DNA of 52,459 bases from a virus (Duplodnaviria; Caudoviricetes): IMG/VR virus record IMGVR_UViG_3300009155_004654, positions 1 to 52,459 of that record; one strand, given 5' to 3'. This document shows, piece by piece, positions 16 to 18,169 of this stretch. The notes under the pieces are model-generated. The model was not told the origin of the DNA. It was given only the letters and a program-made list of their open reading frames with translations, and did no database searches. How positions within the stretch are numbered: the first letter of the stretch is position 1; each line of letters begins with the position of its first letter. The position numbers and the translations under genes were made by a program.

Positions 16-90
16 GGTCGCATGGTCTAGGGGTCATGACGCTAGCCTTTCACGCTGGAAATCGGGGTTCAACTCCCCGTGCGACTACCA
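16..90 (+). tRNA. tRNA-Glu(TTC)
   Basis: Acceptor GGTCGCA/TGCGACT, anticodon loop CTTTCAC, T arm CGGGG-TTCAACT-CCCCG, encoded CCA. Confidence 0.93.
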
Positions 91-95
91 ATTTA

Positions 96-170
96 GGCTA
101 AGTAACTCAGCGGTAGAGTAATCGGCTGTTAACCGATAGGTCGTTGGATCGTTCCCAACCTTAGCCGCCA
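96..170 (+). tRNA. tRNA-Asn(GTT), atypical T loop
   Basis: Acceptor GGCTAAG/CTTAGCC, anticodon stem ATCGG/CCGAT with loop CTGTTAA, T arm GTTGG-ATCGTTC-CCAAC, encoded CCA. Confidence 0.9.
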
Positions 171-4775: not shown

Positions 4776-5107
4776 ATATTCCCGAAACTTACATTAATCA
4801 ATCAGTTAAGCCGCGAGGAGCTACAATTAACGAGCGTCTTAATTATCTCCTTAATTGGTATGTTGATACAGGCACAAAGGTAGGCAAGGACTCCGATTGG
4901 CCTTATCAAGTTCAGTTCTGCGCTATTATGGCCGATCAAGGAAAGACACTTCGTCCTATTTTGATGAAGGAAACAAACGAAGATACGCGAAATGCTATCG
5001 TTAATTTTCTTCCCCTTGTTGAACACATGCAGGCTAATAATCGTTCTGCTGCTGGAATTTCATTTTTTACTTATCTTTACGTTGAACTAAACAAGGTGAT
5101 TGCATGA
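4772..5107 (+). CDS. Hypothetical protein
   Basis: ATGA-coupled ORF in operon. Confidence 0.65.
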   Translation: MNIPETYINQSVKPRGATINERLNYLLNWYVDTGTKVGKDSDWPYQVQFCAIMADQGKTLRPILMKETNEDTRNAIVNFLPLVEHMQANNRSAAGISFFTYLYVELNKVIA

Positions 5108-5301
5108 TTTTTTCTCTTCTAATTCTTTCTATTGCTTTTACAGTTTACTGCACGATTGGTTATGCTTATCATCCCGATACAAAAATTAATCTTAAGGTTC
5201 CCATCATTCCTGTTGTTGTCGATTTGATTGAGTACGATTACGTTCAAGATCCCGAAGACGTAGACCCTCCAACAATTGTAATGCCAAGGAAGCAAAAATG
5301 A
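5104..5301 (+). CDS. Small membrane/secreted protein
   Basis: N-terminal hydrophobic helix, coupled ORF. Confidence 0.55.
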   Translation: MIFSLLILSIAFTVYCTIGYAYHPDTKINLKVPIIPVVVDLIEYDYVQDPEDVDPPTIVMPRKQK

Positions 5302-5525
5302 AGTTGGTTGATTATCTTAATAATTGTGTAACTGATGAAACCTCCGTCATTTTTGGAAAGTTTGGAGCAATCGAAAGTTTTAATCTAAATCCTAATGAAA
5401 AGGTAAAGGTTCTTACTCAAAAGGTAATGAGGGACAAAAAGTATTTCTCAATCGATACCTTGACGGTCAACAAGAGGGGAGATATCTTGTTGATTGAAAG
5501 CGGAGATAAGAAGTGGGTTCCATAA
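5298..5525 (+). CDS. Hypothetical protein
   Basis: Coupled ORF. Confidence 0.55.
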   Translation: MKLVDYLNNCVTDETSVIFGKFGAIESFNLNPNEKVKVLTQKVMRDKKYFSIDTLTVNKRGDILLIESGDKKWVP

Positions 5526-5734
5526 AATTTAATTATGCGGATCTTGTAATTCTTAAAATTAGTTATAGTAAATCTAATAACAATTCTGTGCGTAGAGGTT
5601 CCATAGGGATTATTGTTGATCCAAAAGGTGATCGCAGTTACAATATTGTGAAGGTATTTGGTAGTGATGATAATTGGTATCTTAAAGATGATGAAATGGA
5701 TCTTCTTGAACATTCCTTGACGGCTAAACGATAA
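5513..5734 (+). CDS. Small KOW/SH3-like early protein
   Basis: KFNYADLV..GSIGIIVD variant. Confidence 0.55.
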   Translation: MGSIKFNYADLVILKISYSKSNNNSVRRGSIGIIVDPKGDRSYNIVKVFGSDDNWYLKDDEMDLLEHSLTAKR

Positions 5735-5763
5735 CAGGCTAAGCTATAAGCATCGGAGGGAAG

Positions 5764-5970
5764 ATGAACTTTCGAGTAGGTGATCTTATTATGCACAAGC
5801 ACCGCAAGCATTATGGTTTGGTCGCAAAAGCTATGAAGCCATATTGGCTCAATTACTCCTTGCGCGACGAGCAGTATGATATTACTTGGTTTGATGAAGA
5901 ACTAAATAATCGTCATAATGCTGGCCTCCTACAGATTGAACATGGTGATATGCTTGTTAAGGCAACCTAA
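5764..5970 (+). CDS. Small KOW/SH3-like early protein
   Basis: MNFRVGDLI..YGLV..YDITWFD; SD GGAGG. Confidence 0.72.
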   Translation: MNFRVGDLIMHKHRKHYGLVAKAMKPYWLNYSLRDEQYDITWFDEELNNRHNAGLLQIEHGDMLVKAT

Positions 5971-5982
5971 AGATCGGAGGAA

Positions 5983-6300
5983 ATGATGATTAACAACCGT
6001 CCCGAAATTGGCGATATAATTATGCTTCTTCGCCCAGAAATTGTTGAACTACCAACCAAGGTTCGTAGGGGTCGTCCTCCCAAGGTTCCTCGTATTGAGA
6101 CAAAAACTACTTGGCATGATGATGTTGAGGCAATTATTATTAGTGGTCCTATGCAGGGAATTTCTAGCGATGGTGAAGATTATTGGCTTGAATGGGTGAC
6201 GCAACGCCTTGACGACGGTCGCCCGCATGTTATTACTAGTAGTGGACGCTGGACAGGTTCAAATTGGCGTATCATCCAAAGGGTAAATCCAAATGCCTAA
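5983..6300 (+). CDS. KOW/SH3-like protein with AT-hook-like insert
   Basis: EIGDII motif plus RRGRPPK AT-hook-like peptide. Confidence 0.6.
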   Translation: MMINNRPEIGDIIMLLRPEIVELPTKVRRGRPPKVPRIETKTTWHDDVEAIIISGPMQGISSDGEDYWLEWVTQRLDDGRPHVITSSGRWTGSNWRIIQRVNPNA

Positions 6301-6511
6301 TTATTATCAATCAAAGTTTGAAAAGGGTTCTCTGTGGTATGCGGTCCCTACAAATCATAAGAGGTCACCATTTCATTTTATTGTTAGAGATCCTCGCCCG
6401 CTTGATGCTCGCCTTGCTATTTATGATTTTGAGAGCGGAGAGCTTAAGGAAAATTTCTATCTAAACTATTCCGATCTTGCAACAAACTATATTGTAACTA
6501 AGGTAGCATAA
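6293..6511 (+). CDS. Hypothetical protein
   Basis: Coupled ORF; KFEKGSLW resembles the family N-terminus. Confidence 0.55.
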   Translation: MPNYYQSKFEKGSLWYAVPTNHKRSPFHFIVRDPRPLDARLAIYDFESGELKENFYLNYSDLATNYIVTKVA

Positions 6512-6717
6512 TGTCCAGCAAGAAGTTTGACGATGTGAAGATTGGTGATATCCTTATTTCTAAGCAGCAAACCTCAGACGGGAGCAATTTTGTAGGAACC
6601 GTTGAAGCTATTCATTATTTGCCAACAAAGCGTTTGACTGTTAGGATGTTCCGTAATAATACTAATTATACTATTCATTCAACCTCTATCGGTGTAACTT
6701 GGTATATTGTAACCTAA
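6511..6717 (+). CDS. Small KOW/SH3-like early protein
   Basis: VKIGDIL..VGTVE motif. Confidence 0.65.
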   Translation: MSSKKFDDVKIGDILISKQQTSDGSNFVGTVEAIHYLPTKRLTVRMFRNNTNYTIHSTSIGVTWYIVT

Positions 6718-6719
6718 AC

Positions 6720-6941
6720 ATGGAGAATTCAAATATGGTGCTAATGCACGGCGATCTTGTTTTTCAAATCAAGGAACCAAACAAGTTTTATTTTGTTCTA
6801 AATCCTTGTAGACCCGCTGATGGTTTTACGCAGGTTGTTGTCCAAAATGTAGAGGACAGAAACGATTTTCGATATATCAACAAATTTTGGTTTGACGCTG
6901 GCAATTGGGAGCGTTATACTGAACCCACAAAGGAGAATTAA
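6720..6941 (+). CDS. Small KOW/SH3-like early protein
   Basis: HGDLVF motif; start moved to 6720 or later. Confidence 0.55.
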   Translation: MENSNMVLMHGDLVFQIKEPNKFYFVLNPCRPADGFTQVVVQNVEDRNDFRYINKFWFDAGNWERYTEPTKEN

Positions 6942-6942
6942 C

Positions 6943-7149
6943 GTGGCTTTCCGTGGCTTTTTCGATGATGATAACAATAATGATAACAGTAAGAAGGTGC
7001 TTAATTGCCCCATTCATGGTGATTACCCAGCTTCTATGAAGGCTTTTGGGTGTCCCGAATGTGCGAAGGAGCAGGAGGACGAGCAAGAAATTGAAGAAAT
7101 GCTTGACAAGTCCAAGATTGCTCGTTTTAATACTCCAAGGAAGCGGTAA
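6943..7149 (+). CDS. Small Zn-finger protein
   Basis: GTG start after AAGGAG; CPIHG..GCPEC. Confidence 0.65.
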   Translation: MAFRGFFDDDNNNDNSKKVLNCPIHGDYPASMKAFGCPECAKEQEDEQEIEEMLDKSKIARFNTPRKR

Positions 7150-7313
7150 TGTTATATCACGATTTAACTGACAGAGAAATTATCCAAACTCTTGTTGAGG
7201 ATAAAATTCTGCTTGAAGCAAAAGTTAAGCAATTAGAATCCGAGGTGGAGAAACTTAAAAATAAGAGCGACAAGAAAACTATGTCAATCCCACTATTTAG
7301 ATTTGGAGATTGA
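7149..7313 (+). CDS. Small coiled-coil protein (54 aa, not in ORF track)
   Basis: MLYHDLTDREIIQTLVEDKILLEAKVKQLESEVEKLK.. heptad pattern; TAATG coupling. Confidence 0.6.
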   Translation: MLYHDLTDREIIQTLVEDKILLEAKVKQLESEVEKLKNKSDKKTMSIPLFRFGD

Positions 7314-7315
7314 TT

Positions 7316-7564
7316 ATGAGATATCTTATTTTAGCCCCCTTGCTTTTGCTTGCTGGAGATGCTAGAGCAGAGGACGAAGAACCAAAAAAGGTCTATCGCA
7401 AAGAAACAACCATCGATTTTGAAGAACTAGAAATTGAGGGTATTTTAGTTAAACCTCAATCAGCATTAGTCCTTGAAAGGAAAAAGGCAAGTTTTAATCC
7501 GCTTATTAAACTTAGAACGGATTGGAACGATGAAATCGAAAAGAACGTTGACGAAGTGAAATAA
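7316..7564 (+). CDS. cglF: Homolog of myxobacterial adventurous gliding motility protein CglF/GltF
   Basis: Sec signal peptide (..AGDARA) then KKVYRKETTIDFEELEIEGILVKPQ..ERKKASFNPLIKLRTDWNDEIEKNVDEV, matching recalled CglF pattern YxKKTxIDFxDxxIEGELxKP..RKxxxFxxLIxxRxxFxxEL. Confidence 0.8.
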   Translation: MRYLILAPLLLLAGDARAEDEEPKKVYRKETTIDFEELEIEGILVKPQSALVLERKKASFNPLIKLRTDWNDEIEKNVDEVK

Positions 7565-7581
7565 CCCGTTAAGAGGCTTTC

Positions 7582-7776
7582 ATGGACCGCACCCTGTACG
7601 AATTCCAAACGGGCGATATTGTAGCCCATCGCATGAACGAGAATAAAACGGGAGTTGTTCTTGAAGCCAAATATCTAAATCACAAGGGTAGAGAAATTCT
7701 TTATATTTGCTGGTTCGATGAAGGCCCAGCATCTAAAAAGCGTTATCCAGCCGCGCATATTGTAAAAGTATCGTAG
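7582..7776 (+). CDS. Small KOW/SH3-like early protein
   Basis: FQTGDIV..TGVVL..YICWFD. Confidence 0.72.
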   Translation: MDRTLYEFQTGDIVAHRMNENKTGVVLEAKYLNHKGREILYICWFDEGPASKKRYPAAHIVKVS

Positions 7777-7797
7777 ATTTTTATAGGAGAAACTAAA

Positions 7798-7890
7798 ATG
7801 CCCCTAAATGAAGCCTTTGATCCTTTTTTGATCGTAGTATTCCTGGTTTTTTTCTTTGCTATTTCTACTGCTGCGAAACTTCGTCTTTAA
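7798..7890 (+). CDS. 30-aa membrane peptide (not in ORF track)
   Basis: SD AGGAG; MPLNEAFDPFLIVVFLVFFFAISTAAKLRL. Confidence 0.5.
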   Translation: MPLNEAFDPFLIVVFLVFFFAISTAAKLRL

Positions 7891-7941
7891 CCCTTGCGCT
7901 ATCTCTAAGAGGCGTTAATAGGTATTCATCAAGGAGAGAAG

Positions 7942-8562
7942 ATGAAAGGCTATCGTCGCCACCCTCGCTGCTCGTTTTGCTCCGATACGGGCCATAATCG
8001 TCGGAGTTGCGAAAAGCTCAAGACCGTAAAAGATATTGTTGTCGAAAAGTATAAGACCCTTCGCGCAAAGTGGTGGGAATCTTACAAGAATCTTCCTTAT
8101 GGTTATGGAGCTATTTACAAGCATGTTAATGGCTCTTATGCTTATAATGAAGCTGGAGCTTGGACCCGTGCTGAACTAGGTAAGGAGATTATCCATGTTG
8201 TTGTAGGTATCCATCTTCCTACTTATATTAGCGATACAGGCTCTATTTTTACCTCGCCATTTTCTAGGATTGACGCTGGCGAGCATGGTGGTTATTCCGA
8301 TCTTCCTGTGGTTGACGGATATTTCACCAAAAATATCATGGAATCGCTTAAGCAGGGCTATAGTTATCATCCTACAAAGTGCGTTTTTGAGCGTCGTCTA
8401 CTTTCTTTTGGGGCTACCCTTGCCGATACCGTAGACCGCGATAAGCTTAACAAGTGGTTGGAAGCCCAAGACGTTACGGATTCCCATAGGTTTAGAGATT
8501 CTACAAATACCTACGGTCGTATTATAGAATCTTTTTGTATGGATACTGAACTCGTCGGATAA
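7942..8562 (+). CDS. CCHC zinc-knuckle early protein
   Basis: CSFCSDTGHNRRSC = C-x2-C-x4-H-x4-C; own promoter. Confidence 0.75.
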   Translation: MKGYRRHPRCSFCSDTGHNRRSCEKLKTVKDIVVEKYKTLRAKWWESYKNLPYGYGAIYKHVNGSYAYNEAGAWTRAELGKEIIHVVVGIHLPTYISDTGSIFTSPFSRIDAGEHGGYSDLPVVDGYFTKNIMESLKQGYSYHPTKCVFERRLLSFGATLADTVDRDKLNKWLEAQDVTDSHRFRDSTNTYGRIIESFCMDTELVG

Positions 8563-8635
8563 AAGAAACTTGAAATCCTCCTTGACGGGTCTTGTAGGGT
8601 CCGTTAAGGAGTAAATGAAGGAGAGAGGAAAACAA

Positions 8636-9364
8636 ATGACTTGTAGATTCTGTGGAAGCCGTGGACATAATCGTAATGGCTGCCCCGATGTTGCGGCTCA
8701 TGCTGCCAGCGGTAAGGCAAAAATGGAAGAAGGACAAGATCGCTATTCTCTTGGTTGGAAGGAGCGTTTCGCGGTTTCTATCGTAGATAACAAGGCTACC
8801 CGTTCTGCCCGCGTGTCTACTACTCCTCGCAAGTGTTCCTATTGTTCCGTAGCGGGTCATACGCGAGCAAAGTGTGAAATTCTCACGAATGACCGTGCAG
8901 CCGTTTTTACTCACGAAAAGACGTTCCGCACTAACTTTGCGAATTGGGTTCTTACGAGCGGAATTGGTGTTGGTTCCATCGTTACGAGAAAGAATTGGGA
9001 TGGGACCGAATGGTCTGTTCTTATCACGAAGGTTAACTATGATGGTATCAACATCATGAACCCTAACGGACAGAGCCCTCTTCGCGGTCAGTATCTTAAT
9101 CGACAGGGTTGGGAGAATGACGTAGCAAGCTTGAATATTGCCCCGTCGCGGTATTTTGGATTTGAAATCTCCGCTCCCGCTCCCGCTATTCCTGTCCCCG
9201 ATAGCTTCCTTAGCGACGAGGAAATTACGAAGACGGTTAGTAGGTGGTTCGATGAAAAGTCAAGCCGTCGAACGCGCTGGCATGATGTTTCTGTCGGGAT
9301 CTTCCACGAAAATCGTCCCGATCTTGTGGAATTGACGGAGAAGGCGAAGGTTTACGCAGTTTAG
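8636..9364 (+). CDS. Double CCHC zinc-knuckle early protein
   Basis: CRFCGSRGHNRNGC and CSYCSVAGHTRAKC; start 8636 by SD (8615 alternative). Confidence 0.78.
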   Translation: MTCRFCGSRGHNRNGCPDVAAHAASGKAKMEEGQDRYSLGWKERFAVSIVDNKATRSARVSTTPRKCSYCSVAGHTRAKCEILTNDRAAVFTHEKTFRTNFANWVLTSGIGVGSIVTRKNWDGTEWSVLITKVNYDGINIMNPNGQSPLRGQYLNRQGWENDVASLNIAPSRYFGFEISAPAPAIPVPDSFLSDEEITKTVSRWFDEKSSRRTRWHDVSVGIFHENRPDLVELTEKAKVYAV

Positions 9365-9428
9365 GAAACTATTTAATCCTCCTTGACTTTCGGGTCTTGG
9401 AGGATTAACTATTAGTGGGAGGCAAAAA

Positions 9429-9644
9429 ATGAAGTTTGATGTTGAAGAAGCGATTGAAGAAATCCTTGTTGAAGGTTTTAGCGAAGGAGATCTTTTGCGA
9501 GCGGTCCTTGCAGTTCTTCCAAAGAGTGAAATTGAGGAAATTCTAAATTCAGCCGAAGACCACCTTTTTGCCGAAGCAGAAGAAGAAAGCGAGGAAGATT
9601 GGGATAGCGACGAAGATGAAATTGACGAGGAAGAGGAATTCTAA
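9429..9644 (+). CDS. Small highly acidic protein
   Basis: EEESEEDWDSDEDEIDEEEEF tail; own promoter and SD GGAGG. Confidence 0.7.
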   Translation: MKFDVEEAIEEILVEGFSEGDLLRAVLAVLPKSEIEEILNSAEDHLFAEAEEESEEDWDSDEDEIDEEEEF

Positions 9645-9835
9645 TGTTCAAAGTCGGAGATCTTGTCGAGGTTAAATATAGGGAAAATAAACCTGGAATT
9701 ATAACTTCCATTTTTGAGGAGACGGACAGAAAAGATAAGTTTAAACATAAAAGAACTTTTTATGTCGTCAAACACCTTGAAAGTGAATCGACAGGAGAAT
9801 GGCTAGAAACTTCTTTACGACCCTTGAAAAGTTGA
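9644..9835 (+). CDS. Small KOW/SH3-like early protein
   Basis: MFKVGDLVEV..PGIIT..FYVVK. Confidence 0.75.
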   Translation: MFKVGDLVEVKYRENKPGIITSIFEETDRKDKFKHKRTFYVVKHLESESTGEWLETSLRPLKS

Positions 9836-9839
9836 GAAT

Positions 9840-9896
9840 ATCGCCCCTCATACTCGGCAAATTTGGAAAATAAAAGAATAAGGATGAGGGGCGATT
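9840..9896. repeat. Inverted repeat / hairpin upstream of EndoVII gene
   Basis: ATCGCCCCTCAT..ATGAGGGGCGAT 12-bp perfect stem followed by TTT. Confidence 0.65.
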
Positions 9897-9935
9897 TTCT
9901 ATTTATATAACTACTTATTCATAGGAGGAAACTTC

Positions 9936-10505
9936 ATGGAAGATCAAGTAGTTGATGAAAAGAAAACAAAAAAGAGAGAAGCAAATAAAAGATATATACA
10001 AAAGAATAAAGAAAAGTTAAACGAGAAGAAGAAACAATATCGTTTAGAAAATAAAGAAAAAATTAAACAATATTATTTAGAGAATAAAGAAAAATTAAAC
10101 GAACATATGAAACAATATCGTTTAGTGAATAAAGAAAAAATAGAAGAGTATAATAAGCAATATCGTTTAGAAAATAAAGAAAACGATAAACAATATCGTT
10201 TAAATAATAAAGAAAGATATAGAGAAAGTAAACTTAAAAGAAAGTATAACATAACCCTTGACGACTACAATAAGATGTTGTTAGAACAAGACGGCAAGTG
10301 CTGGACCTGTTCTATCAAGATTGAAGATACAAAAAAGAAATATCTTTGTGTAGATCATAATCACTTGACAGGACAGGTAAGAGGGTTATTGTGTGATCCC
10401 TGTAACGTCGCTCTTGGTCTTCTTAAAGAAAGTCAAGAGATAATCGCAAATCTTTCAAAATATTTATATGAAAAAGATCCTTGCGTCCCCGAAGAAGGGC
10501 GTTAA
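9936..10505 (+). CDS. Endonuclease VII-family homing endonuclease with N-terminal helical repeats
   Basis: Repeated KQYRLENKE units; KRKYNITLDDY..QDGKCWTC..VDHNHLTGQVRGLLCDPCN. Confidence 0.9.
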   Translation: MEDQVVDEKKTKKREANKRYIQKNKEKLNEKKKQYRLENKEKIKQYYLENKEKLNEHMKQYRLVNKEKIEEYNKQYRLENKENDKQYRLNNKERYRESKLKRKYNITLDDYNKMLLEQDGKCWTCSIKIEDTKKKYLCVDHNHLTGQVRGLLCDPCNVALGLLKESQEIIANLSKYLYEKDPCVPEEGR

Positions 10506-11925: not shown

Positions 11926-12180
11926 ATGAAGGTTTACGAGGTTTCGTGGGGAATTCGATACGAGGGATCGAGCGTTGTTGCGATCTACGCTACTGCTGAC
12001 CGCGCTATGATTGGTGCTTGGGAGGAAGCAGAAAGGCTGAATAAGATCTACGAGTCCACAAGCGGAAATCCTTCCAAAGAGACGGAGTGGACAGTTTCTA
12101 CCGAAAAAAAGTGTCTTTTTTACATCGCTAATGATCTTGACGATTATATCTTCGTCAAAGAACGCGAGGTAATCGAATAA
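11926..12180 (+). CDS. Hypothetical early protein
   Basis: Own promoter 11881 and SD GAGGAGG. Confidence 0.7.
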   Translation: MKVYEVSWGIRYEGSSVVAIYATADRAMIGAWEEAERLNKIYESTSGNPSKETEWTVSTEKKCLFYIANDLDDYIFVKEREVIE

Positions 12181-12236
12181 AAGTTCCTTGACGATCCCCC
12201 TAAACCCGTTAAGAGGATGAAGAGGAGAAAAGAGAA

Positions 12237-12701
12237 ATGAACTTCAAAATCGGTGATATCGTCGTTTCTCGCATGATCGGAGCGACGGGAATTGTGAGCG
12301 AAATCGAAAATCGTCCTTTCGACAACGATCCCGAAAAGATGCCAAGGTATTTCTACACCGTCAAGTGGTTTAATTATGATGTTGAATATACCCGTAATCT
12401 TGACGGACAATCTCTTAAACCTTTTGAAACGGAAAAGCCTGTGAATAATCCTACGAAAAAGATGTGGACGCGCCAGCAGATTGAGGCTATGCTTGAACAG
12501 GACGCAGCGGTCAATCAAGCCGTTGTCTCCCTCGCGAGGAACGTTGACCTTCTTCCCGAAAAGACCCGTTCCTACGTGATTAATTGGGGAAATTGGGTAG
12601 CAAGCGGCAAGTCCCTTAGCGGCAAGCACCTTGTAAACGCCCGTCGAACCTGTATTTTCAACTCCAAGACCCTTACCGCAATCGCAAATAAGGAGGTTTG
12701 A
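12237..12701 (+). CDS. KOW/SH3-like domain fused to helical domain
   Basis: MNFKIGDIV..YTVKWFN followed by a WTRQQIE..LSGKHL domain. Confidence 0.7.
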   Translation: MNFKIGDIVVSRMIGATGIVSEIENRPFDNDPEKMPRYFYTVKWFNYDVEYTRNLDGQSLKPFETEKPVNNPTKKMWTRQQIEAMLEQDAAVNQAVVSLARNVDLLPEKTRSYVINWGNWVASGKSLSGKHLVNARRTCIFNSKTLTAIANKEV

Positions 12702-12832
12702 TGTATACCGAAGAGCAGAAGAAGAAGGATATTGAATTTGTGGATAAGTTCACGGTTGTCCTTAGCGTTTTTGCTGGTTCCTACATGGTCTTCTACTTTA
12801 TCCCTATGGTTATCAGCAAGCTTTTCTTCTAA
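12701..12832 (+). CDS. Small membrane protein (43 aa, not in ORF track)
   Basis: SD AAGGAGG; MYTEEQKKKDIEFVDKFTVVLSVFAGSYMVFYFIPMVISKLFF. Confidence 0.6.
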   Translation: MYTEEQKKKDIEFVDKFTVVLSVFAGSYMVFYFIPMVISKLFF

Positions 12833-12888
12833 AAGTTCCTTGACCATCTACGAGAAACGGTTAATCTCTAAAACGAAGGAGAAAGAAA

Positions 12889-13071
12889 ATGACGGTCGCT
12901 CAGCTTCGTGCGCTTCTTGCTAATCTTCCCGATGATATGCGGATCGCTCTTTCCTACGAGGGATCGGTAGCGACGTTTATGTCTGGAGATATCTGCTTTG
13001 AAGATGATAAGGGCAGCGAGATCAACGAGAGCGAGGCTACGTCAAGCGATTTTCTCGTTTTTGTTGAATAA
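12889..13071 (+). CDS. Small phage protein (MTVxxLxxxL family)
   Basis: MTVAQLRALLANLPDDMRI, a common phage N-terminus; own promoter. Confidence 0.7.
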   Translation: MTVAQLRALLANLPDDMRIALSYEGSVATFMSGDICFEDDKGSEINESEATSSDFLVFVE

Positions 13072-13366
13072 AAGAAAGAGGAAAGAAAATGGTTGACGGT
13101 CTACGAGGTAATGGTTAGTTGAAAAGGGCTGGAGAGAAAACCAGCGAGAACGAAAAAAGAAAAAAGACCCTTGACGAAGTTTGAGGGTCGGTTAAGGAGA
13201 GAAGGTCAACGCGAGGAAAGAAAGCTCCTCGCCACATAAAAGAGGTCAAGGCGGAAAGTTGAAAAAAACTTCCTTGACGCTCCTCCCAAAGCGGTTAAGA
13301 AGAAAGGGCTGGAGGGAAATGGTTCCCGAAGGCTCGCTGATAAACTCCCGACTACGGACGTTCAAA

Positions 13367-13768
13367 ATGGCTCGCAAGAACACCCCCGCTACCTACGCTT
13401 GTGGCAACTGCGGTACTCACGGTCACAACAAGCGCACCTGCCCCGAACTTGGCCTTGTCGCGAAGGTCAAGCCTGTCAAGAAGCCCCGTGCGAAGAAGGT
13501 TGTTGAGGAGACGCCCGCTATCGCTCCTCTCGCGACTGAGGAGCAGCTTGAGGCTCTCCGCGCTCTTGCTGAGGAGATCGCCGCTGAGGTTGAGACGGCG
13601 TGCGAAGAGGAGAGCGAGCGTGAGCCTACCGACGAGGAGCTTACGGAGATTGAGGCTGGCGAGGTTGACGCGGCGTTTGAGGCTGAGATTCCCGCTGGTG
13701 AGGTGGTTGAGGTCAGCGACGAGGAAGAGGCCGCGTTCATGAACGAGTTTGCCGCGCTCTTCGCCTAA
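13367..13768 (+). CDS. CCHC zinc-knuckle protein with basic linker and acidic tail
   Basis: Start moved to 13367; CGNCGTHGHNKRTC, KVKPVKKPRAKK, then Glu-rich tail ending FMNEFAALFA; strongly biased codons. Confidence 0.8.
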   Translation: MARKNTPATYACGNCGTHGHNKRTCPELGLVAKVKPVKKPRAKKVVEETPAIAPLATEEQLEALRALAEEIAAEVETACEEESEREPTDEELTEIEAGEVDAAFEAEIPAGEVVEVSDEEEAAFMNEFAALFA

Positions 13769-13785
13769 AAGCTGAGGGAGATTAA

Positions 13786-13827
13786 GAGGTTGGAGGCTCA
13801 AAAGGCTTCCAGCCTCTTTCTCTTTTA
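13786..13827 (+). terminator. Probable terminator
   Basis: GAGGTTGGAGGC..GCTTCCAGCCTC stem followed by TTTCTCTTTT. Confidence 0.6.
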
Positions 13828-13973
13828 TGCGGGGGGAAGAAATCCAGGTTCTTCCTCCTCTTTGAGAAATCTTCAAAAGCTCCTTGACGGTCTTTGAGGA
13901 GCGGTTAAGTAGAAAGGGCTGGAGGGGAATGGTCCTCGCCAGCAAACGTCCTTCTTCAAAAAGGGTATTTCAA

Positions 13974-14210
13974 ATGGCTTTCAACGCCGACGAGCTTGCT
14001 GCTCACATCTTTTCCGACGAAAACCCCGTAAACATCGTGGGGCGTTATCGTCTTGCTATGAAGAGCCTTCTTATTGACGCGAGGACGCTTAGCCCCGAAA
14101 ATGTTGAGCTTCAAGCTATCGTTTTTGAACGTCTCCGCGCTGCGCTTGATAGCGAGGAATACAAGGCGTATGAGAAGGCTTTGCTTGCCTCTTGGGCGAA
14201 CAAGGGCTAG
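13974..14210 (+). CDS. Hypothetical early protein
   Basis: Start moved to 13974 (MAFNAD); own promoter 13884. Confidence 0.7.
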   Translation: MAFNADELAAHIFSDENPVNIVGRYRLAMKSLLIDARTLSPENVELQAIVFERLRAALDSEEYKAYEKALLASWANKG

Positions 14211-14443
14211 GCATTAAGAGGTTCAAGGAAATCTTCAAAAGACCCTTGCGCCTCTTGATGGAGCGGTTAAGTAGAAAGGGTGAGGGTCGGAACCCCTCCA
14301 GCTTCCCGAAAACGAGGCAGGGACGAGAAAGAAGAAACTTTCAAGAAAGTCCTTGCCGCTTCTCCAAGACCCGTTAATAGAAAGGGGCTGAGGGAATCCT
14401 CCCGACGCTTCTTCAACAACCAGCAATCAAGGTAATCCACCAA

Positions 14444-15529
14444 ATGGCTATCGATTTCAAGACCTTCCTTTCGGTCGCTCCCTACGTCCTCAACGTCCGC
14501 AAGCCTGTCCTTATTCGTGGTCGCCACGGTATCGGCAAGAGCGAGGTTGTCTACCAAATCGCCCGCGAGCTTGGCCTTCCTGTGGTTGAACGCCGCGTTT
14601 CGCAGATGACTGAGGGTGACCTTCTTGGTATGCCTTCCGCTATCGGCACTGAGATCGGCGGCAAGCGTGCGACGACTTGGGACGCTCCCGATTGGCTCCT
14701 CACCGCTTGTGCTCAGCCTGTCGTGATGTTCCTTGACGAAGTGGACCGCGGAACTACTGAGGTTCGACAGGGCATCTTCGAGCTTACCGACTCCCGCAAG
14801 ATCGCTGGCGTTACGCTCCACCCCGATACGCTGATTATCGCTGCTGTGAACGGTGGAAATCACGGGTCGCAATACCAAGTTGGCGAGATGGACCCTGCTG
14901 AGCTTGACCGCTGGACTGCTTTTGACCTTGAGCCTACCGTCGAAGATTGGCTTACTTGGGCGAAGGACAATACTCACGGGCTTGTTTGGGACTTTATCAA
15001 CCAAAACCGCAAGGATCTTGAGCACAACGGGGATTTTGAGCCCAACAAGAAGTACCCGTCCCGACGCTCTTGGAAGCGGCTGAATGACTGTCTCGTCGCT
15101 GGCAAGCTCACGACGGACGCTGCTAAGAAGGCTGGCATCATCTACAACCTCGCTTGCGGATTTGTCGGCTTTGAAGCTGCGGTTAAGCTGAAGGCTCACG
15201 TTGAGAACTACAAGGAGCAGGTTACCGTCGAAGATATCCTTGACGACGGAAAGGTGAGCAAGACCAAGGACTTCGCTATCACCGACCACGCTGCCCTTGC
15301 GGAGAAGATCACTCAGTCGGGTCGTCTCAACGAGGCTCTTACGACGGTCGCTCTCAAGAACCTTGCTTCTTATTGGCTTACTCTGCCCTCTGAGGTTGCC
15401 ATGAAGCTCTACACCGATATCGGTCGCAGCTTCGTCAAGAACGCCGTTGCCCTGCACGCTACGGAGGTCAACGGAGTCAAGGTTGGTGAGCAGCTTGCTA
15501 AGGTGCTTGGTGCTGGTCGCTCTAAGTAG
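14444..15529 (+). CDS. MoxR-family AAA+ ATPase
   Basis: Walker A GRHGIGKS, Walker B MFLDEVDR, AAVN sensor, MDPAELDR Arg finger, PSRRSW. Confidence 0.92.
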   Translation: MAIDFKTFLSVAPYVLNVRKPVLIRGRHGIGKSEVVYQIARELGLPVVERRVSQMTEGDLLGMPSAIGTEIGGKRATTWDAPDWLLTACAQPVVMFLDEVDRGTTEVRQGIFELTDSRKIAGVTLHPDTLIIAAVNGGNHGSQYQVGEMDPAELDRWTAFDLEPTVEDWLTWAKDNTHGLVWDFINQNRKDLEHNGDFEPNKKYPSRRSWKRLNDCLVAGKLTTDAAKKAGIIYNLACGFVGFEAAVKLKAHVENYKEQVTVEDILDDGKVSKTKDFAITDHAALAEKITQSGRLNEALTTVALKNLASYWLTLPSEVAMKLYTDIGRSFVKNAVALHATEVNGVKVGEQLAKVLGAGRSK

Positions 15530-15545
15530 TCAGTAAGGCAGCATA

Positions 15546-15588
15546 AACCCTCGCTTTTCCTTCGGGAGAGGCGGGGGTTTTCTGCTTT
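15546..15588 (+). terminator. Rho-independent terminator (cUUCGg loop)
   Basis: AAACCCTCGCTTTTCC-TTCG-GGAGAGGCGGGGGTTT then T run. Confidence 0.85.
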
Positions 15589-15721
15589 TAATCCGCAAAT
15601 TTCAAGGGCATTTCAGTTCTTGAAATCCGAAAGCTGAAAGCCAGGAGGAGGGGCGACGAAGCCAGGACGATGCCCCTTCCCGAAGGTGAGGGACGGTCCC
15701 GAAGATGCCCCTAGCCCGCAA

Positions 15722-15798
15722 TAGGAAGCGATATGGGACGCGAGGAGGGGCAGGGGTAGGGTGAGGGTAGGGGTCGCAGGGAGGGTCGCCCATATCGC
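15722..15798. repeat. G-rich-loop hairpin element, copy 1
   Basis: Stem GCGATATGGG/CCCATATCGC enclosing GGAGGGGCAGGGGTAGGGTGAGGGTAG. Confidence 0.75.
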
Positions 15799-16009
15799 AA
15801 TAGGTTTAGCAAGTAGTTTTGGACCTCCGCGCAACCTCTTTTGAAAGAAAAAGTTGAAATAAAGTCCTTGACAAAATAAATATTCTTTTTGCTCTTGACT
15901 TTTAGAAGATCCAAAGTGGCGTTACTTGTTCGCAGGTAACGCAAGATCGGAACATCCAGCCCCTAAGCCTACTCCACGGGTCACCCTCAAAGACCTCCGC
16001 TAAGGGCTC

Positions 16010-16086
16010 TAGGAACGCTTATGGGAGCGATGGAGGGTAAGGGGTAGGGTAAGGTAGCCCCCCACGGTCCACGAGGCTCATAAGCG
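16010..16086. repeat. G-rich-loop hairpin element, copy 2
   Basis: Stem CGCTTATGGG/CTCATAAGCG enclosing GGAGGGTAAGGGGTAGGGTAAGGTAG; compensatory changes versus copy 1. Confidence 0.75.
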
Positions 16087-16207
16087 AAATGGGAGCGTCG
16101 AGAACTTTTGGGGAGTCGTCAAGGGCAAAGAAGAAGAAAGTTGAAGAAAGTTTCTCCTTGACGATGGAGGTGGACCCGTTAAGAGAAGAACGAAGGAGAA
16201 AGAAGAA

Positions 16208-16384
16208 ATGAACAAGCTCGTCATGATCTATCTGATCGCGGTTTCTCACCTTTCCAACATCGTGCCCCTTGCCATTCCCGAAGGCGAGGTTATTGGAGGT
16301 GGGGCTGAGATCGAAGCGGTTTACGTTCCTGCTGGCTACGCTGGTCCTATCGTCGCAGCCCCTTTCAGCGAAAAGGTTTTCTAA
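16208..16384 (+). CDS. Small hydrophobic protein (58 aa, not in ORF track)
   Basis: Promoter 16158, SD AAGGAG; MNKLVMIYLIAVSHLS.. Confidence 0.6.
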   Translation: MNKLVMIYLIAVSHLSNIVPLAIPEGEVIGGGAEIEAVYVPAGYAGPIVAAPFSEKVF

Positions 16385-16435
16385 AAGACCTTGACGCTTC
16401 TCCTAAACGCATTAAGAGGTTCAAGAGGAGGGAAG

Positions 16436-16630
16436 ATGAAGGTTTCGTTCAACGTCCTGTATGCCCAAATTGAGGCAAAGAGGAAGGCTGACCCGCGTTC
16501 CAGCCCTAGCCGCGATAATCATTCCTTCAAGGACATTCTTGCCTTGATGAAGGAGATCGAAAAGGATATCGAAAGCGCGGGCTGGAGCGTTCCCGAATAC
16601 TACGATCAAGTCAAGACCATGCCTCTCTGA
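16436..16630 (+). CDS. Hypothetical early protein
   Basis: Start moved to 16436; promoter 16391, SD GAGGAGG. Confidence 0.68.
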   Translation: MKVSFNVLYAQIEAKRKADPRSSPSRDNHSFKDILALMKEIEKDIESAGWSVPEYYDQVKTMPL

Positions 16631-16693
16631 AAAAAGAGAGGGGGGGCCTTGCGCTTATACACCAACCCGTTAAGAGAAGAAGACGGAGGCAAG

Positions 16694-17287
16694 ATGGAAG
16701 CGGTAGAGAGGATCGCAGCAATCAAGGCTAACCCTGCCTTTGAGGGTCTTTCGCAGAGTCACAAGGATTTCGTTGATTCTGTCGAAAAGTGGGTTAAAAC
16801 GCGCCCTCTTTCGATGGGTCAAGAGGCATGGATCGAGCGGATCGAAAAAGTTCTCAAACCTGTTGACAATAGCTGGTTTGACCTTAACGACGAGGAATTC
16901 CAGAAGAAGCGTGCTTATGCGATCCAGCACTACAAGGCAACGGGCTACTACCTTCATCAAGTTTCCCGTATGGAAGCCGATCCTGCCTACATGCCCGAAA
17001 AAGAACTTTGGGATAGAATGTGGGGAAACAAGTATATCAACGCCGCTTTTAAGCGATGGACGGCTGGAGCCCGTTTCAAGATCGGTGATATGGTAGTCAA
17101 CAAATATTATCCTAGTTACTACGGAAAGATCGCGGTTATTGAAAATGTTGTTTGGAATAGTTCGGGCTGGACATATGGCGCACTTCCGCTTAATCCCGGT
17201 GAACATTATATTAATCAAAAGATGCAGCAGATTGACGAAAAGCACTTTCTACCTGCTTCTAATCGCAATCTCAAAAACCGCATCTAA
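16694..17287 (+). CDS. Early protein with C-terminal KOW/SH3-like domain
   Basis: Start moved to 16694; internal RFKIGDMVV motif. Confidence 0.72.
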   Translation: MEAVERIAAIKANPAFEGLSQSHKDFVDSVEKWVKTRPLSMGQEAWIERIEKVLKPVDNSWFDLNDEEFQKKRAYAIQHYKATGYYLHQVSRMEADPAYMPEKELWDRMWGNKYINAAFKRWTAGARFKIGDMVVNKYYPSYYGKIAVIENVVWNSSGWTYGALPLNPGEHYINQKMQQIDEKHFLPASNRNLKNRI

Positions 17288-17373
17288 TCATTAGCGAGCC
17301 GTCAAGGTCTTTCTCTAAAAAAGATTGGCCTTGACGGTTCTTCGTAGCGGGTTAACTTCAAGGAGGAGGGAAG

Positions 17374-17541
17374 ATGGAAGAGAACTTCAAGAACGAAGAC
17401 CACACGGCTTTCTGTGATATGGTGCTAGGCTCCGATAACGGTTTTAGCGAGGGAGATCGTCAAGTTCTTTTTCTCCACGCTCTTATCGAAAAGTATAGCG
17501 TCCCCCTTGATAATCCCCGCGAAAACGTTACTATCTTCTAG
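17374..17541 (+). CDS. Small protein (55 aa, not in ORF track)
   Basis: Promoter 17331, SD AAGGAGG. Confidence 0.6.
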   Translation: MEENFKNEDHTAFCDMVLGSDNGFSEGDRQVLFLHALIEKYSVPLDNPRENVTIF

Positions 17542-17551
17542 GAGGTTCTAA

Positions 17552-17761
17552 ATGGCTAAGGCAAAGAAGGCTAGGCGTGTCTATCCTCTAATTAATGAAA
17601 TTGTTGAGCTTATCCCGCAAAAGCGCAGGGCAAAGGTTACTTTTCTTGACCCTCGCATTATCAAGGTCCGCTGGATGGATAACGAAGCGGTTGAGGAATT
17701 CAGCACAAGTTATTTCGTTGATACATATTGGACTATTGCCGTGAGGAATTACGATGTATAA
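17552..17761 (+). CDS. Small SH3-like protein
   Basis: SD AGGAGG; IKVRWMD. Confidence 0.6.
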   Translation: MAKAKKARRVYPLINEIVELIPQKRRAKVTFLDPRIIKVRWMDNEAVEEFSTSYFVDTYWTIAVRNYDV

Positions 17762-17966
17762 GAAGCCTGCTCCCCCGAAGCTTGGAACCCTTGTTGTTGC
17801 TCAAAATATTGATGGGACTATGTGTAATGGATATGTAAGCGGATTTATGGGCGATATTGCTAAGGGTAGATATTGTATTGAAATTACGTTCCATGAAGGA
17901 AAGCAAAATCATCGTTTCTTCTCAGTTGGTGAGGAAGGCAAACTATGGCGCAAGCTCCCCTCGTAA
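17754..17966 (+). CDS. Small KOW/SH3-like protein
   Basis: PKLGTLV..GYVS variant. Confidence 0.55.
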   Translation: MYKKPAPPKLGTLVVAQNIDGTMCNGYVSGFMGDIAKGRYCIEITFHEGKQNHRFFSVGEEGKLWRKLPS

Positions 17967-18169
17967 ATATTGGAGATTTGGTATGGGTTAAAATCCAGCT
18001 TGGAAGGGATCATTATACCTGCTTGACTGCTTTTATCTTTGCGGTTAACTATTGGGATGGGCAAAACGTATCATCTTATTATGCTGAATATTTAGAACAA
18101 AATAATCCTCAAACAACTGCCCTTTATGGGTTTGACTTCAACGATATATGGGGGAAGCTTGAAACCTAA
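17945..18169 (+). CDS. Small KOW/SH3-like protein
   Basis: VNIGDLVWV. Confidence 0.65.
   Translation: MAQAPLVNIGDLVWVKIQLGRDHYTCLTAFIFAVNYWDGQNVSSYYAEYLEQNNPQTTALYGFDFNDIWGKLET

Follow-up and report, generated by a model that had tools for sequence, protein, structure and literature searches.

The window considered here is the whole virus record IMGVR_UViG_3300009155_004654 (52,459 bases), and the element in question is a small gene whose product resembles GltF, a small exported protein in the periplasmic part of the trans-envelope Agl-Glt gliding machine of Myxococcus that is one and the same as CglF (PMC4488436). The open reading frame (ORF) runs from 7310 to 7564 on the plus strand and most likely begins at the ATG at 7316, which gives a protein of 82 amino acids (aa). 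The start is preceded by a ribosome-binding site (Table 1); GGAGATTGA is invariant in five aligned relatives, and the GGAG-spacer-ATG layout is kept in the four closest ones. Read by eye, the translation opens with a Sec-type signal made of M-R, the hydrophobic core LILAPLLLLAG and A-R-A, followed by E19, and the signal peptide proposed in an earlier note, written from the DNA letters alone, is indeed present. An A-x-A followed by an acidic stretch recurs in most rows of our alignment of relatives (alignment A1), and in the phage protein this acidic stretch opens the mature part. Because the sequence holds no cysteine, the product is predicted to be a non-lipoprotein. The central stretch contains the columns I33, D34, F35, E36, L44, K46, P47, L51, L53, E54 and R55, all invariant in A1, and the near-invariant block across relatives includes Y27, I33-D34-F35-E36, K46-P47, L53-E54-R55-K56-K57, F60-N61-P62-L63 and R67. 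An AlphaFold2 model of the monomer scores best in the helix at residues 62–81 (pLDDT 75–80), the remainder being of low confidence.

The protein matches the profile NF033764 (gliding_CglF, NCBIfam) over residues 4–80 against profile positions 10–87/88, with an E-value of 1e-13 and 51.1 bits, and a six-frame search of the record gives the same profile 51.2 bits; Pfam and PHROGs gave no match for this protein. The homology to CglF/GltF that the earlier note had proposed is thus borne out by the family profile. The residue pattern on which that proposal leaned is largely present, with K29, T31, I33-D34-F35, I40-E41-G42, L44, K46-P47, R55-K56, F60, L63-I64 and R67 all in place, although seven residues, and not two, separate K-P from R-K. 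Judged by sequence comparison, the assignment of the phage protein as a GltF homologue is well supported, though it is not a curated equivalog.

Table 1. Positions of the gltF-like gene, its parts and other features (window coordinates unless a locus is named; nt, nucleotides; CDS, coding sequence)
Feature	Position	Strand	Basis or remark
Promoter-like motif ACTATTTA; lies within the 3' end of ORF 7149..7313 and stops 16 nt short of the start codon	7292..7299	+	18 copies in the window, all on this strand
GGAG ribosome-binding site, 7 nt ahead of ATG 7316	7305..7308	+	Read from sequence
CDS of the GltF/CglF-family protein (82 aa), stop included	7316..7564	+	ORF reading and NF033764 match; 345 related 90%-identity clusters
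Signal peptide, residues 1–18; predicted signal peptidase I cut after A-R-A	7316..7369	+	Translation read by eye
Conserved central stretch, residues 29–55 (K-E-T-T-I-D-F ... L-E-R)	7400..7480	+	Alignment A1
C-terminal helix, residues 62–81	7499..7558	+	AlphaFold2 model; P62, L63, R67 and E80 invariant (A1)
tRNA-Glu (TTC) and tRNA-Asn (GTT) genes, at the very start of the record	16-170		
Flp-like prepilin beside the gltF-like gene	L004:10198-10395		Also in L024, L017, L020, L061, L006, L007, L043, L064, L048, L037, L031, L005 and L057
Flp-like prepilin near the gltF-like gene	L014, L002, L003, L023, L028, L033		

That the gene is phage-borne is well supported. The record has a CheckV completeness of 23% at its 52,459 bases, so that the phage genome is probably larger than 200 kb. 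Nearly all window ORFs of at least 100 aa lie on one strand. Among the PHROG matches are PhoH, two glycosyltransferases, an exonuclease subunit of DNA polymerase, HNH endonucleases and an ATPase; of the 20 window ORFs scanned, none is a clear virion protein. Viral sequences make up 100%, 100% and 89% of the three ESM Atlas clusters nearest to the protein. Half or more of the words sampled from window positions 5000–10000 were present in 16 of the 20 public sequencing runs listed. These 16, one of which may be the source run, stem from 13 studies of fresh water, lake water and viral metagenomes; no RNA data set is listed among the runs with window DNA. The gene itself is covered by contigs from two virome runs.

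The earlier note had called the gene isolated, which is true within the window, while the same gene recurs in many large aquatic phages. A word-indexed search at E ≤0.01 found 345 clusters (90% identity), the 120 listed being 60–96% identical, and an exhaustive search found 432 representatives at E ≤0.001. Six IMG/VR contigs carry a relative at 62–75% identity, and these come from large phages, since they are only 15–39% complete at 39–132 kb. A metagenome scan confirmed 124 loci, of which 80 were kept, so that the viral and metagenome loci together make up 86 related loci. A GltG-like neighbour is found in a single one of them (L073, 67% guanine plus cytosine [G+C]) and in none of the other 85; where 1 kb or more of downstream sequence is available (51 loci), 50 loci are without a GltG-like gene. 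Likewise, no match to GltD, GltE or GltG was found in the window, and NF033768 was not found in the window record, in a search that did not take in the metagenome records of L021 and L031. Among the papers listed by our literature searches, none describes a phage-encoded GltF or CglF in its title or abstract. A CglF-like segment is also embedded near residues 780–1000 of three much longer proteins (P0156, P0226 and P0247; 971–1345 aa) that have no other NCBIfam match. In two short proteins (P0169 and P0218) a CglF-like tail is joined to an unrelated enzyme or regulator; these look like chimeric gene calls. None of the five offered a clue to function.

The gene is kept by selection in the phages, as indicated by ratios of non-synonymous to synonymous substitution rates (dN/dS) of 0.033–0.169 in 10 phage–phage pairs and of 0.05–0.08 between the window and its relatives L010 and L011. 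Fourteen pairs were tried; L004 and L024 are identical, L012 and L013 differ by two synonymous changes only, and L030/L061 and L033/L039 were unusable because of a misaligned partial sequence or saturation. This bears on the proposal that the gene is a recently captured host gene without function for the phage. In its favour, one contig in each of two of the four runs compared, a virome and a freshwater metagenome, passes directly from 7228 to 7580; the 351 bases omitted hold the entire gene, and on its shorter side the joint is backed by only 30 letters. Contigs with the gene have depths of 5.75 and 9.27 and the joining contigs 11.5 and 8.1, with sums near those of the flanks (~20 and ~17), although such depths are crude, all four runs having been compared as contigs. 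These contigs hint that part of the population may lack or replace the gene, which is perhaps dispensable there. A functionless passenger is nevertheless already disfavoured by the selection data, and it sits poorly with the presence of the gene in 85 phage-like loci and 345 clusters and with a G+C content of the gene (37%) near that of the window (35%); we consider it very improbable.

Cellular relatives of the phage protein lie in clusters of the glt type. Two genome loci recovered with the phage protein (L008 and L009), both from one phylum, show the order GltD-like TPR protein, GltE, small protein and GltG, with an extra GltG-C-terminal-like protein between GltE and the small protein in L008. 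The genome of L009 (G002) is a metagenome-assembled genome (MAG) titled 'uncultured Enterobacteriaceae bacterium'; it has 68% G+C and a complete gltD-E-F-G cluster and falls in the same GTDB phylum as the Myxococcota-labelled MAG, so the title is probably wrong. The cellular sample comprised 301 genomes from the GTDB phylum of G001, a MAG whose record is filed under Myxococcota, and 139 of these match the phage protein, with identities of at most 62% and a best E-value of 5.9e-26. In the loci returned for the best matches, a GltG-like gene comes next in 12 of 12 and a GltE-like gene before in 9 of 12; in the three loci without a GltE-like gene, there is no room upstream or another gene stands there. 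By MAFFT, the best of 34 cellular rows against the window protein is L094 at 63%. In 24 of 82 columns, chiefly those of the mature core and with the central stretch among them, the same residue forms a majority of at least 80% in the phage and in the cellular sequences, and median identities are 62% between phages, 66% between cells and 53% between phage and cell. The cellular clusters may represent Glt, its sporulation paralogue Nfs (PMC3169522) or another paralogous set.

The separation between phage and cellular versions was further examined with a maximum-likelihood tree of 116 sequences (82 phage-like and 34 from glt clusters) over 79 columns. Partial matches (L064, L065, L079 and L080), a copy of the window (L001) and a copy of L008 (L100) were omitted. 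The phage/cell label changes twice on this tree, compared with a mean of 29.5 for shuffled labels, and none of 500 shuffles was as low. L010 and L011 join the window first (support 98), followed by L012 and L013 (support 96). The phage copies thus appear to cluster and to sit beside a subset of the cellular copies, whereas the number and direction of transfers are left unclaimed because the alignment has 79 columns only and most forks are unresolved.

A lead to the host comes from these cellular relatives and from a second phage gene. In a survey of 1180 proteomes, Myxococcales and Bdellovibrionales were the only groups in which GltF was reported (PMC3169522). A 66-aa Flp-like prepilin is encoded near the gltF-like gene in 20 of the 86 related loci, within ~60 nt of it in 14, and the phage versions are 83–100% identical to one another; the window itself does not hold this gene. 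The small protein has a prepilin-like leader, weak sub-threshold Pfam matches to Flp1_like and to the class III signal peptide, and a G-x-x-x-x-E-Y motif, which we take to be the Flp signature. It matches 20 of the 301 genomes, 15 of them at E ≤1e-17 with 56–74% identity. The 25 genomes that rank highest for GltF include 11 of these 15 (hypergeometric P 1.3e-10, uncorrected for relatedness). The cellular prepilin loci have 68–73% G+C and are chromosomal rather than phage, given that an aldehyde dehydrogenase gene adjoins the prepilin gene in three of six. The two phage genes therefore seem to resemble most closely the versions of one sub-lineage of the phylum of G001, which hints at a myxobacterial (Myxococcota) host. 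Such a host had been put forward in the earlier note, and it stands as a lead only, carried by the nearest cellular relatives searched, in glt-type clusters, and by the prepilin in the same genomes. Searches with PhoH and a topoisomerase of a sister locus gave only distant matches (<60% identity) to jumbo phages of many hosts, and so carry no host information. A broader and more tentative idea, which we rate as possible though somewhat unlikely, is that large aquatic phages of uncultured Myxococcota carry a toolkit, consisting of GltF and the Flp-like prepilin of those 20 loci, often side by side, that takes over gliding and pilus machines.

What such a protein may do in an infected cell is suggested by work on Myxococcus xanthus. 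There, and in no other species so far, GltF has been shown to be needed for gliding; a GltF-mCherry fusion was found in the envelope and in focal adhesion clusters, and the clusters formed by GltD depend on GltF (PMC3169522); GltF has been described as periplasmic and associated with the inner membrane (PMC4488436, PMC3169522). In a modelling study of 2025, GltF is mostly disordered, one strand of it pairs with the TonB-like C-terminal domain of GltG, and its C-terminal helix lies in a crevice of the TPR protein GltC, so that it would bridge the inner- and outer-membrane parts of the machine (PMC11761067). By analogy with that model, and not by alignment, the central stretch at residues 29–55 of the phage protein may be the counterpart of the GltF strand that pairs with GltG, and the helix at residues 62–81 may be the counterpart of the GltF helix in the GltC crevice. 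We therefore envisage, conditionally, that the Sec system of the host would export the phage protein after infection, and that the exported protein would occupy the position of GltF in a host machine of the Glt or Nfs type, the host probably being one of the aquatic Myxococcota. The phage copy would then serve in place of host GltF, either working as it does or re-tuning the machine, which would stay coupled as expression of host genes fails. Such a subunit is favoured over a pure poison or decoy because the central stretch and the C-terminal helix are both kept. Replacement of GltF in a host Glt/Nfs-type machine is a reading that we hold with moderate confidence, and the lean towards a working or re-tuning subunit is tentative.

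Several observations weigh against this replacement. The phage protein scores well below the curated equivalog cut-off of 90 bits for NF033764; the cellular GltF proteins within the gltD-gltE-gltF-gltG clusters of L008 and L009 also fall below it, at 60.4 and 54.6 bits, so that the cut-off separates close Myxococcus relatives and not homologues. The defining gltE-gltF-gltG context is absent around the window gene, which is flanked by small phage ORFs. Modelled on its own with AlphaFold2, the phage protein gives a structure of low confidence (pLDDT 64.6, pTM 0.25), and the GltF contacts in the modelling study are themselves predictions, for which the authors state that there is no biochemical evidence (PMC11761067). 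The window protein gave no tblastn match in 50,697 GenBank phage records, and thus no cultured system stands behind it. As for the host, the phage has 35% G+C compared with 59–73% in the computed cellular loci, and the carriers are varied (loci of 32–64% G+C) and come from water-column metagenomes, which fits poorly with a single bacterial phylum as host. The overlap between the prepilin and GltF genomes was computed within one phylum and without an outgroup, Bdellovibrionota, which also bear gltF according to PMC3169522, being outside the search, and may reflect shared ancestry in one clade. The contigs that skip the gene in two of the four runs add to these points. A predicted complex between the C-terminal domain of GltG from the nearest cellular locus (L122, residues 545–652, with a three-row alignment) and mature phage residues 20–82 (A1) scored 0.28 and 0.29 against a mark of 0.32, in a run without controls, and weighs on neither side of the question of binding.

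The same homology and export evidence would serve equally for interference, in which the phage copy, once exported, would vie with GltF of the host and leave the Glt-type machine uncoupled or frozen. Movement of the infected cell could thereby stop, or superinfecting phages could be excluded if the outer-membrane Glt complex is the receptor or entry route of the phage. Altered motility and the plugging of a receptor had been among the effects proposed in the earlier note. Phage lipoproteins that block TonB-dependent receptors offer an analogy for such exclusion. A gene that stands alone, without partner glt genes, is what would be expected of a decoy, and the window gene lies among small genes typical of host-takeover regions. 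Moreover, the central stretch differs between the two groups, with a phage majority of D-L-E-I-E-G where the cellular one is G-V-D-V-s-G. However, both conserved segments are kept and a simple decoy needs one only, and a Glt component acting as a phage receptor is hypothetical. We consider interference rather unlikely.

The earlier note had also raised the transfer of the phage copy to uninfected kin by outer-membrane exchange, which would alter the behaviour of the recipients. In the older cgl literature CglF is described as passed between cells, and the historical classing of cglF among the contact-stimulatable gliding mutants is all that speaks for such a transfer. The phage protein has a type I signal and no lipobox cysteine, GltF is periplasmic and associated with the inner membrane (PMC4488436, PMC3169522), and the papers on exchange considered here concern outer-membrane lipoproteins. 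Transfer between cells is, accordingly, hardly probable.

A further alternative is that the target is not Glt at all, and that the protein binds another TonB-, TolA- or AgmX-like C-terminal domain or another TPR protein, either of a host outside Myxococcota and Bdellovibrionota or of the phage itself, the likeness to GltF being that of a docking peptide only. The breadth of the carriers, with loci of 32–64% G+C from lakes and oceans, is in keeping with this. So are two proteins encoded by sister phages. One is a 263-aa protein on the minus strand (L123:1438-2229) of record G004, which also has the gltF-like gene; its C-terminus is a borderline AgmX/PglI (TonB-C-like) domain, just above the cut-off of 40 bits in the six-frame search (41) and just below it by hmmscan (38.8). 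The other is the product of the next gene after the gltF-like gene in L003 (10370-14149), L002 and L023, a protein of 1260 aa (1191 aa in L006 and L007) with an OmpA-like peptidoglycan-binding domain at its C-terminal end. Against a target outside Glt, the phage protein is up to 62% identical to syntenic cellular GltF along its entire mature length, far above what a docking peptide needs, the AgmX-like domain was found in only one of the seven viral records searched, and the best matches of the Flp-like neighbour fall in the same subset of Myxococcota. A non-Glt target is in our view quite unlikely. The middle of the 1260-aa protein resembles the thrombospondin-type repeats of myxobacterial MtsC (E 1.1e-10), and an unannotated protein of 642 aa precedes it.

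The motif ahead of the gene, ACTATTTA, is a real strand-specific element. The 18 copies in the window all lie on the plus strand, whereas 4.72 ± 2.08 copies are expected on both strands together, and none of 100 shuffles reached 18. They span positions 797–43774, and many lie 3–30 nt before start codons, some only 3–5 nt from the ATG. The copy ahead of the gltF-like gene is kept in L010 and L011 and absent in L012 and L013, relatives at 77% identity. The motif looks like a phage-specific promoter element. The earlier note had read it as a late promoter; the motif itself holds up, but its lateness is not supported, as the genes scanned behind other copies encode a thioredoxin-like protein, PhoH, an HNH endonuclease and proteins without an assigned function, with no clear virion protein among them.

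Around the gltF-like gene, the sister phages encode functions in DNA metabolism and functions directed at the envelope. In the longer loci sampled, the neighbours with names in DNA metabolism are both type II topoisomerase subunits (T4-type), an ATP-dependent DNA ligase, ThyX, a dUTPase/nucleotidase and a nucleoside deoxyribosyltransferase. The envelope-directed neighbours are GH46, PA14/GLEYA, laminin-G-like and PKD proteins. Examples of surface- or wall-directed genes lie at L005:8461-9746, L060:2473-3486 and L034:5637-6335, with PA14/GLEYA lectin-like, laminin-G-like, TseH-like peptidase and GH46 chitosanase-like domains, and one window ORF clusters with the GH46-like protein in an all-against-all clustering. 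Within the window, positions 12001–18000 have 47–54% G+C compared with mostly 29–36% elsewhere; this stretch, which holds the ATPase (PHROG 1297, CobS/MoxR-like) and small phage-type ORFs, may be a mosaic exchange with higher-G+C phages.

If the broader toolkit idea is true, the takeover could keep the infected cell moving or attached, or could shut its surface to other phages. The genes concerned would then be the first viral auxiliary genes for a gliding machine, and their nearest cellular relatives would help to recognise, from sequence, the hosts of many related orphan jumbo phages. The gltF-like gene itself may be the first virus-encoded part of a gliding-type envelope machine, and it offers a lead to the host, open to testing, for many uncultured jumbo phages of fresh and marine waters for which no cultured relative bears the gene. 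The conserved and widespread phage version would also provide a naturally reduced form of GltF with which to ask which of its contacts are important.

Compared with known systems, the phage protein is closest in kind to M. xanthus GltF (CglF; MXAN_4868; NF033764). Both are small (89 aa in Table 1 of PMC3169522, 82 aa here), carry a signal peptide without a lipobox and are linked by a full-length profile match, and both seem to be mostly unstructured with a C-terminal helix, according to PMC11761067 for the cellular protein and AlphaFold2 for the phage one. The phage copy differs in being virus-encoded, without adjoining gltE or gltG, and in scoring under the equivalog cut-off. Similarly, the syntenic GltF-like genes of uncultured Myxococcota (L008, L009, L073 and L090–L121) share 44–62% identity with the window protein in the best matches per genome, as well as the conserved core and similar NF033764 scores, but sit between GltE-like and GltG-like genes in genomes of 59–69% G+C. 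Auxiliary, host-derived genes such as psbA, found in cyanophages and other large phages of the T4 type, also represent a host-type subunit of a multi-protein host machine that a large lytic-type phage carries alone under purifying selection, whereas GltF belongs to an envelope machine of the motility type and not to metabolism. Small superinfection-exclusion proteins such as Llp of T5 and Imm and Sp of T4 are likewise exported by the infected cell and act on envelope components; they are lipoproteins or membrane proteins, while the phage GltF would be a soluble homologue of a part of the host machine, with no sequence relation to them expected.

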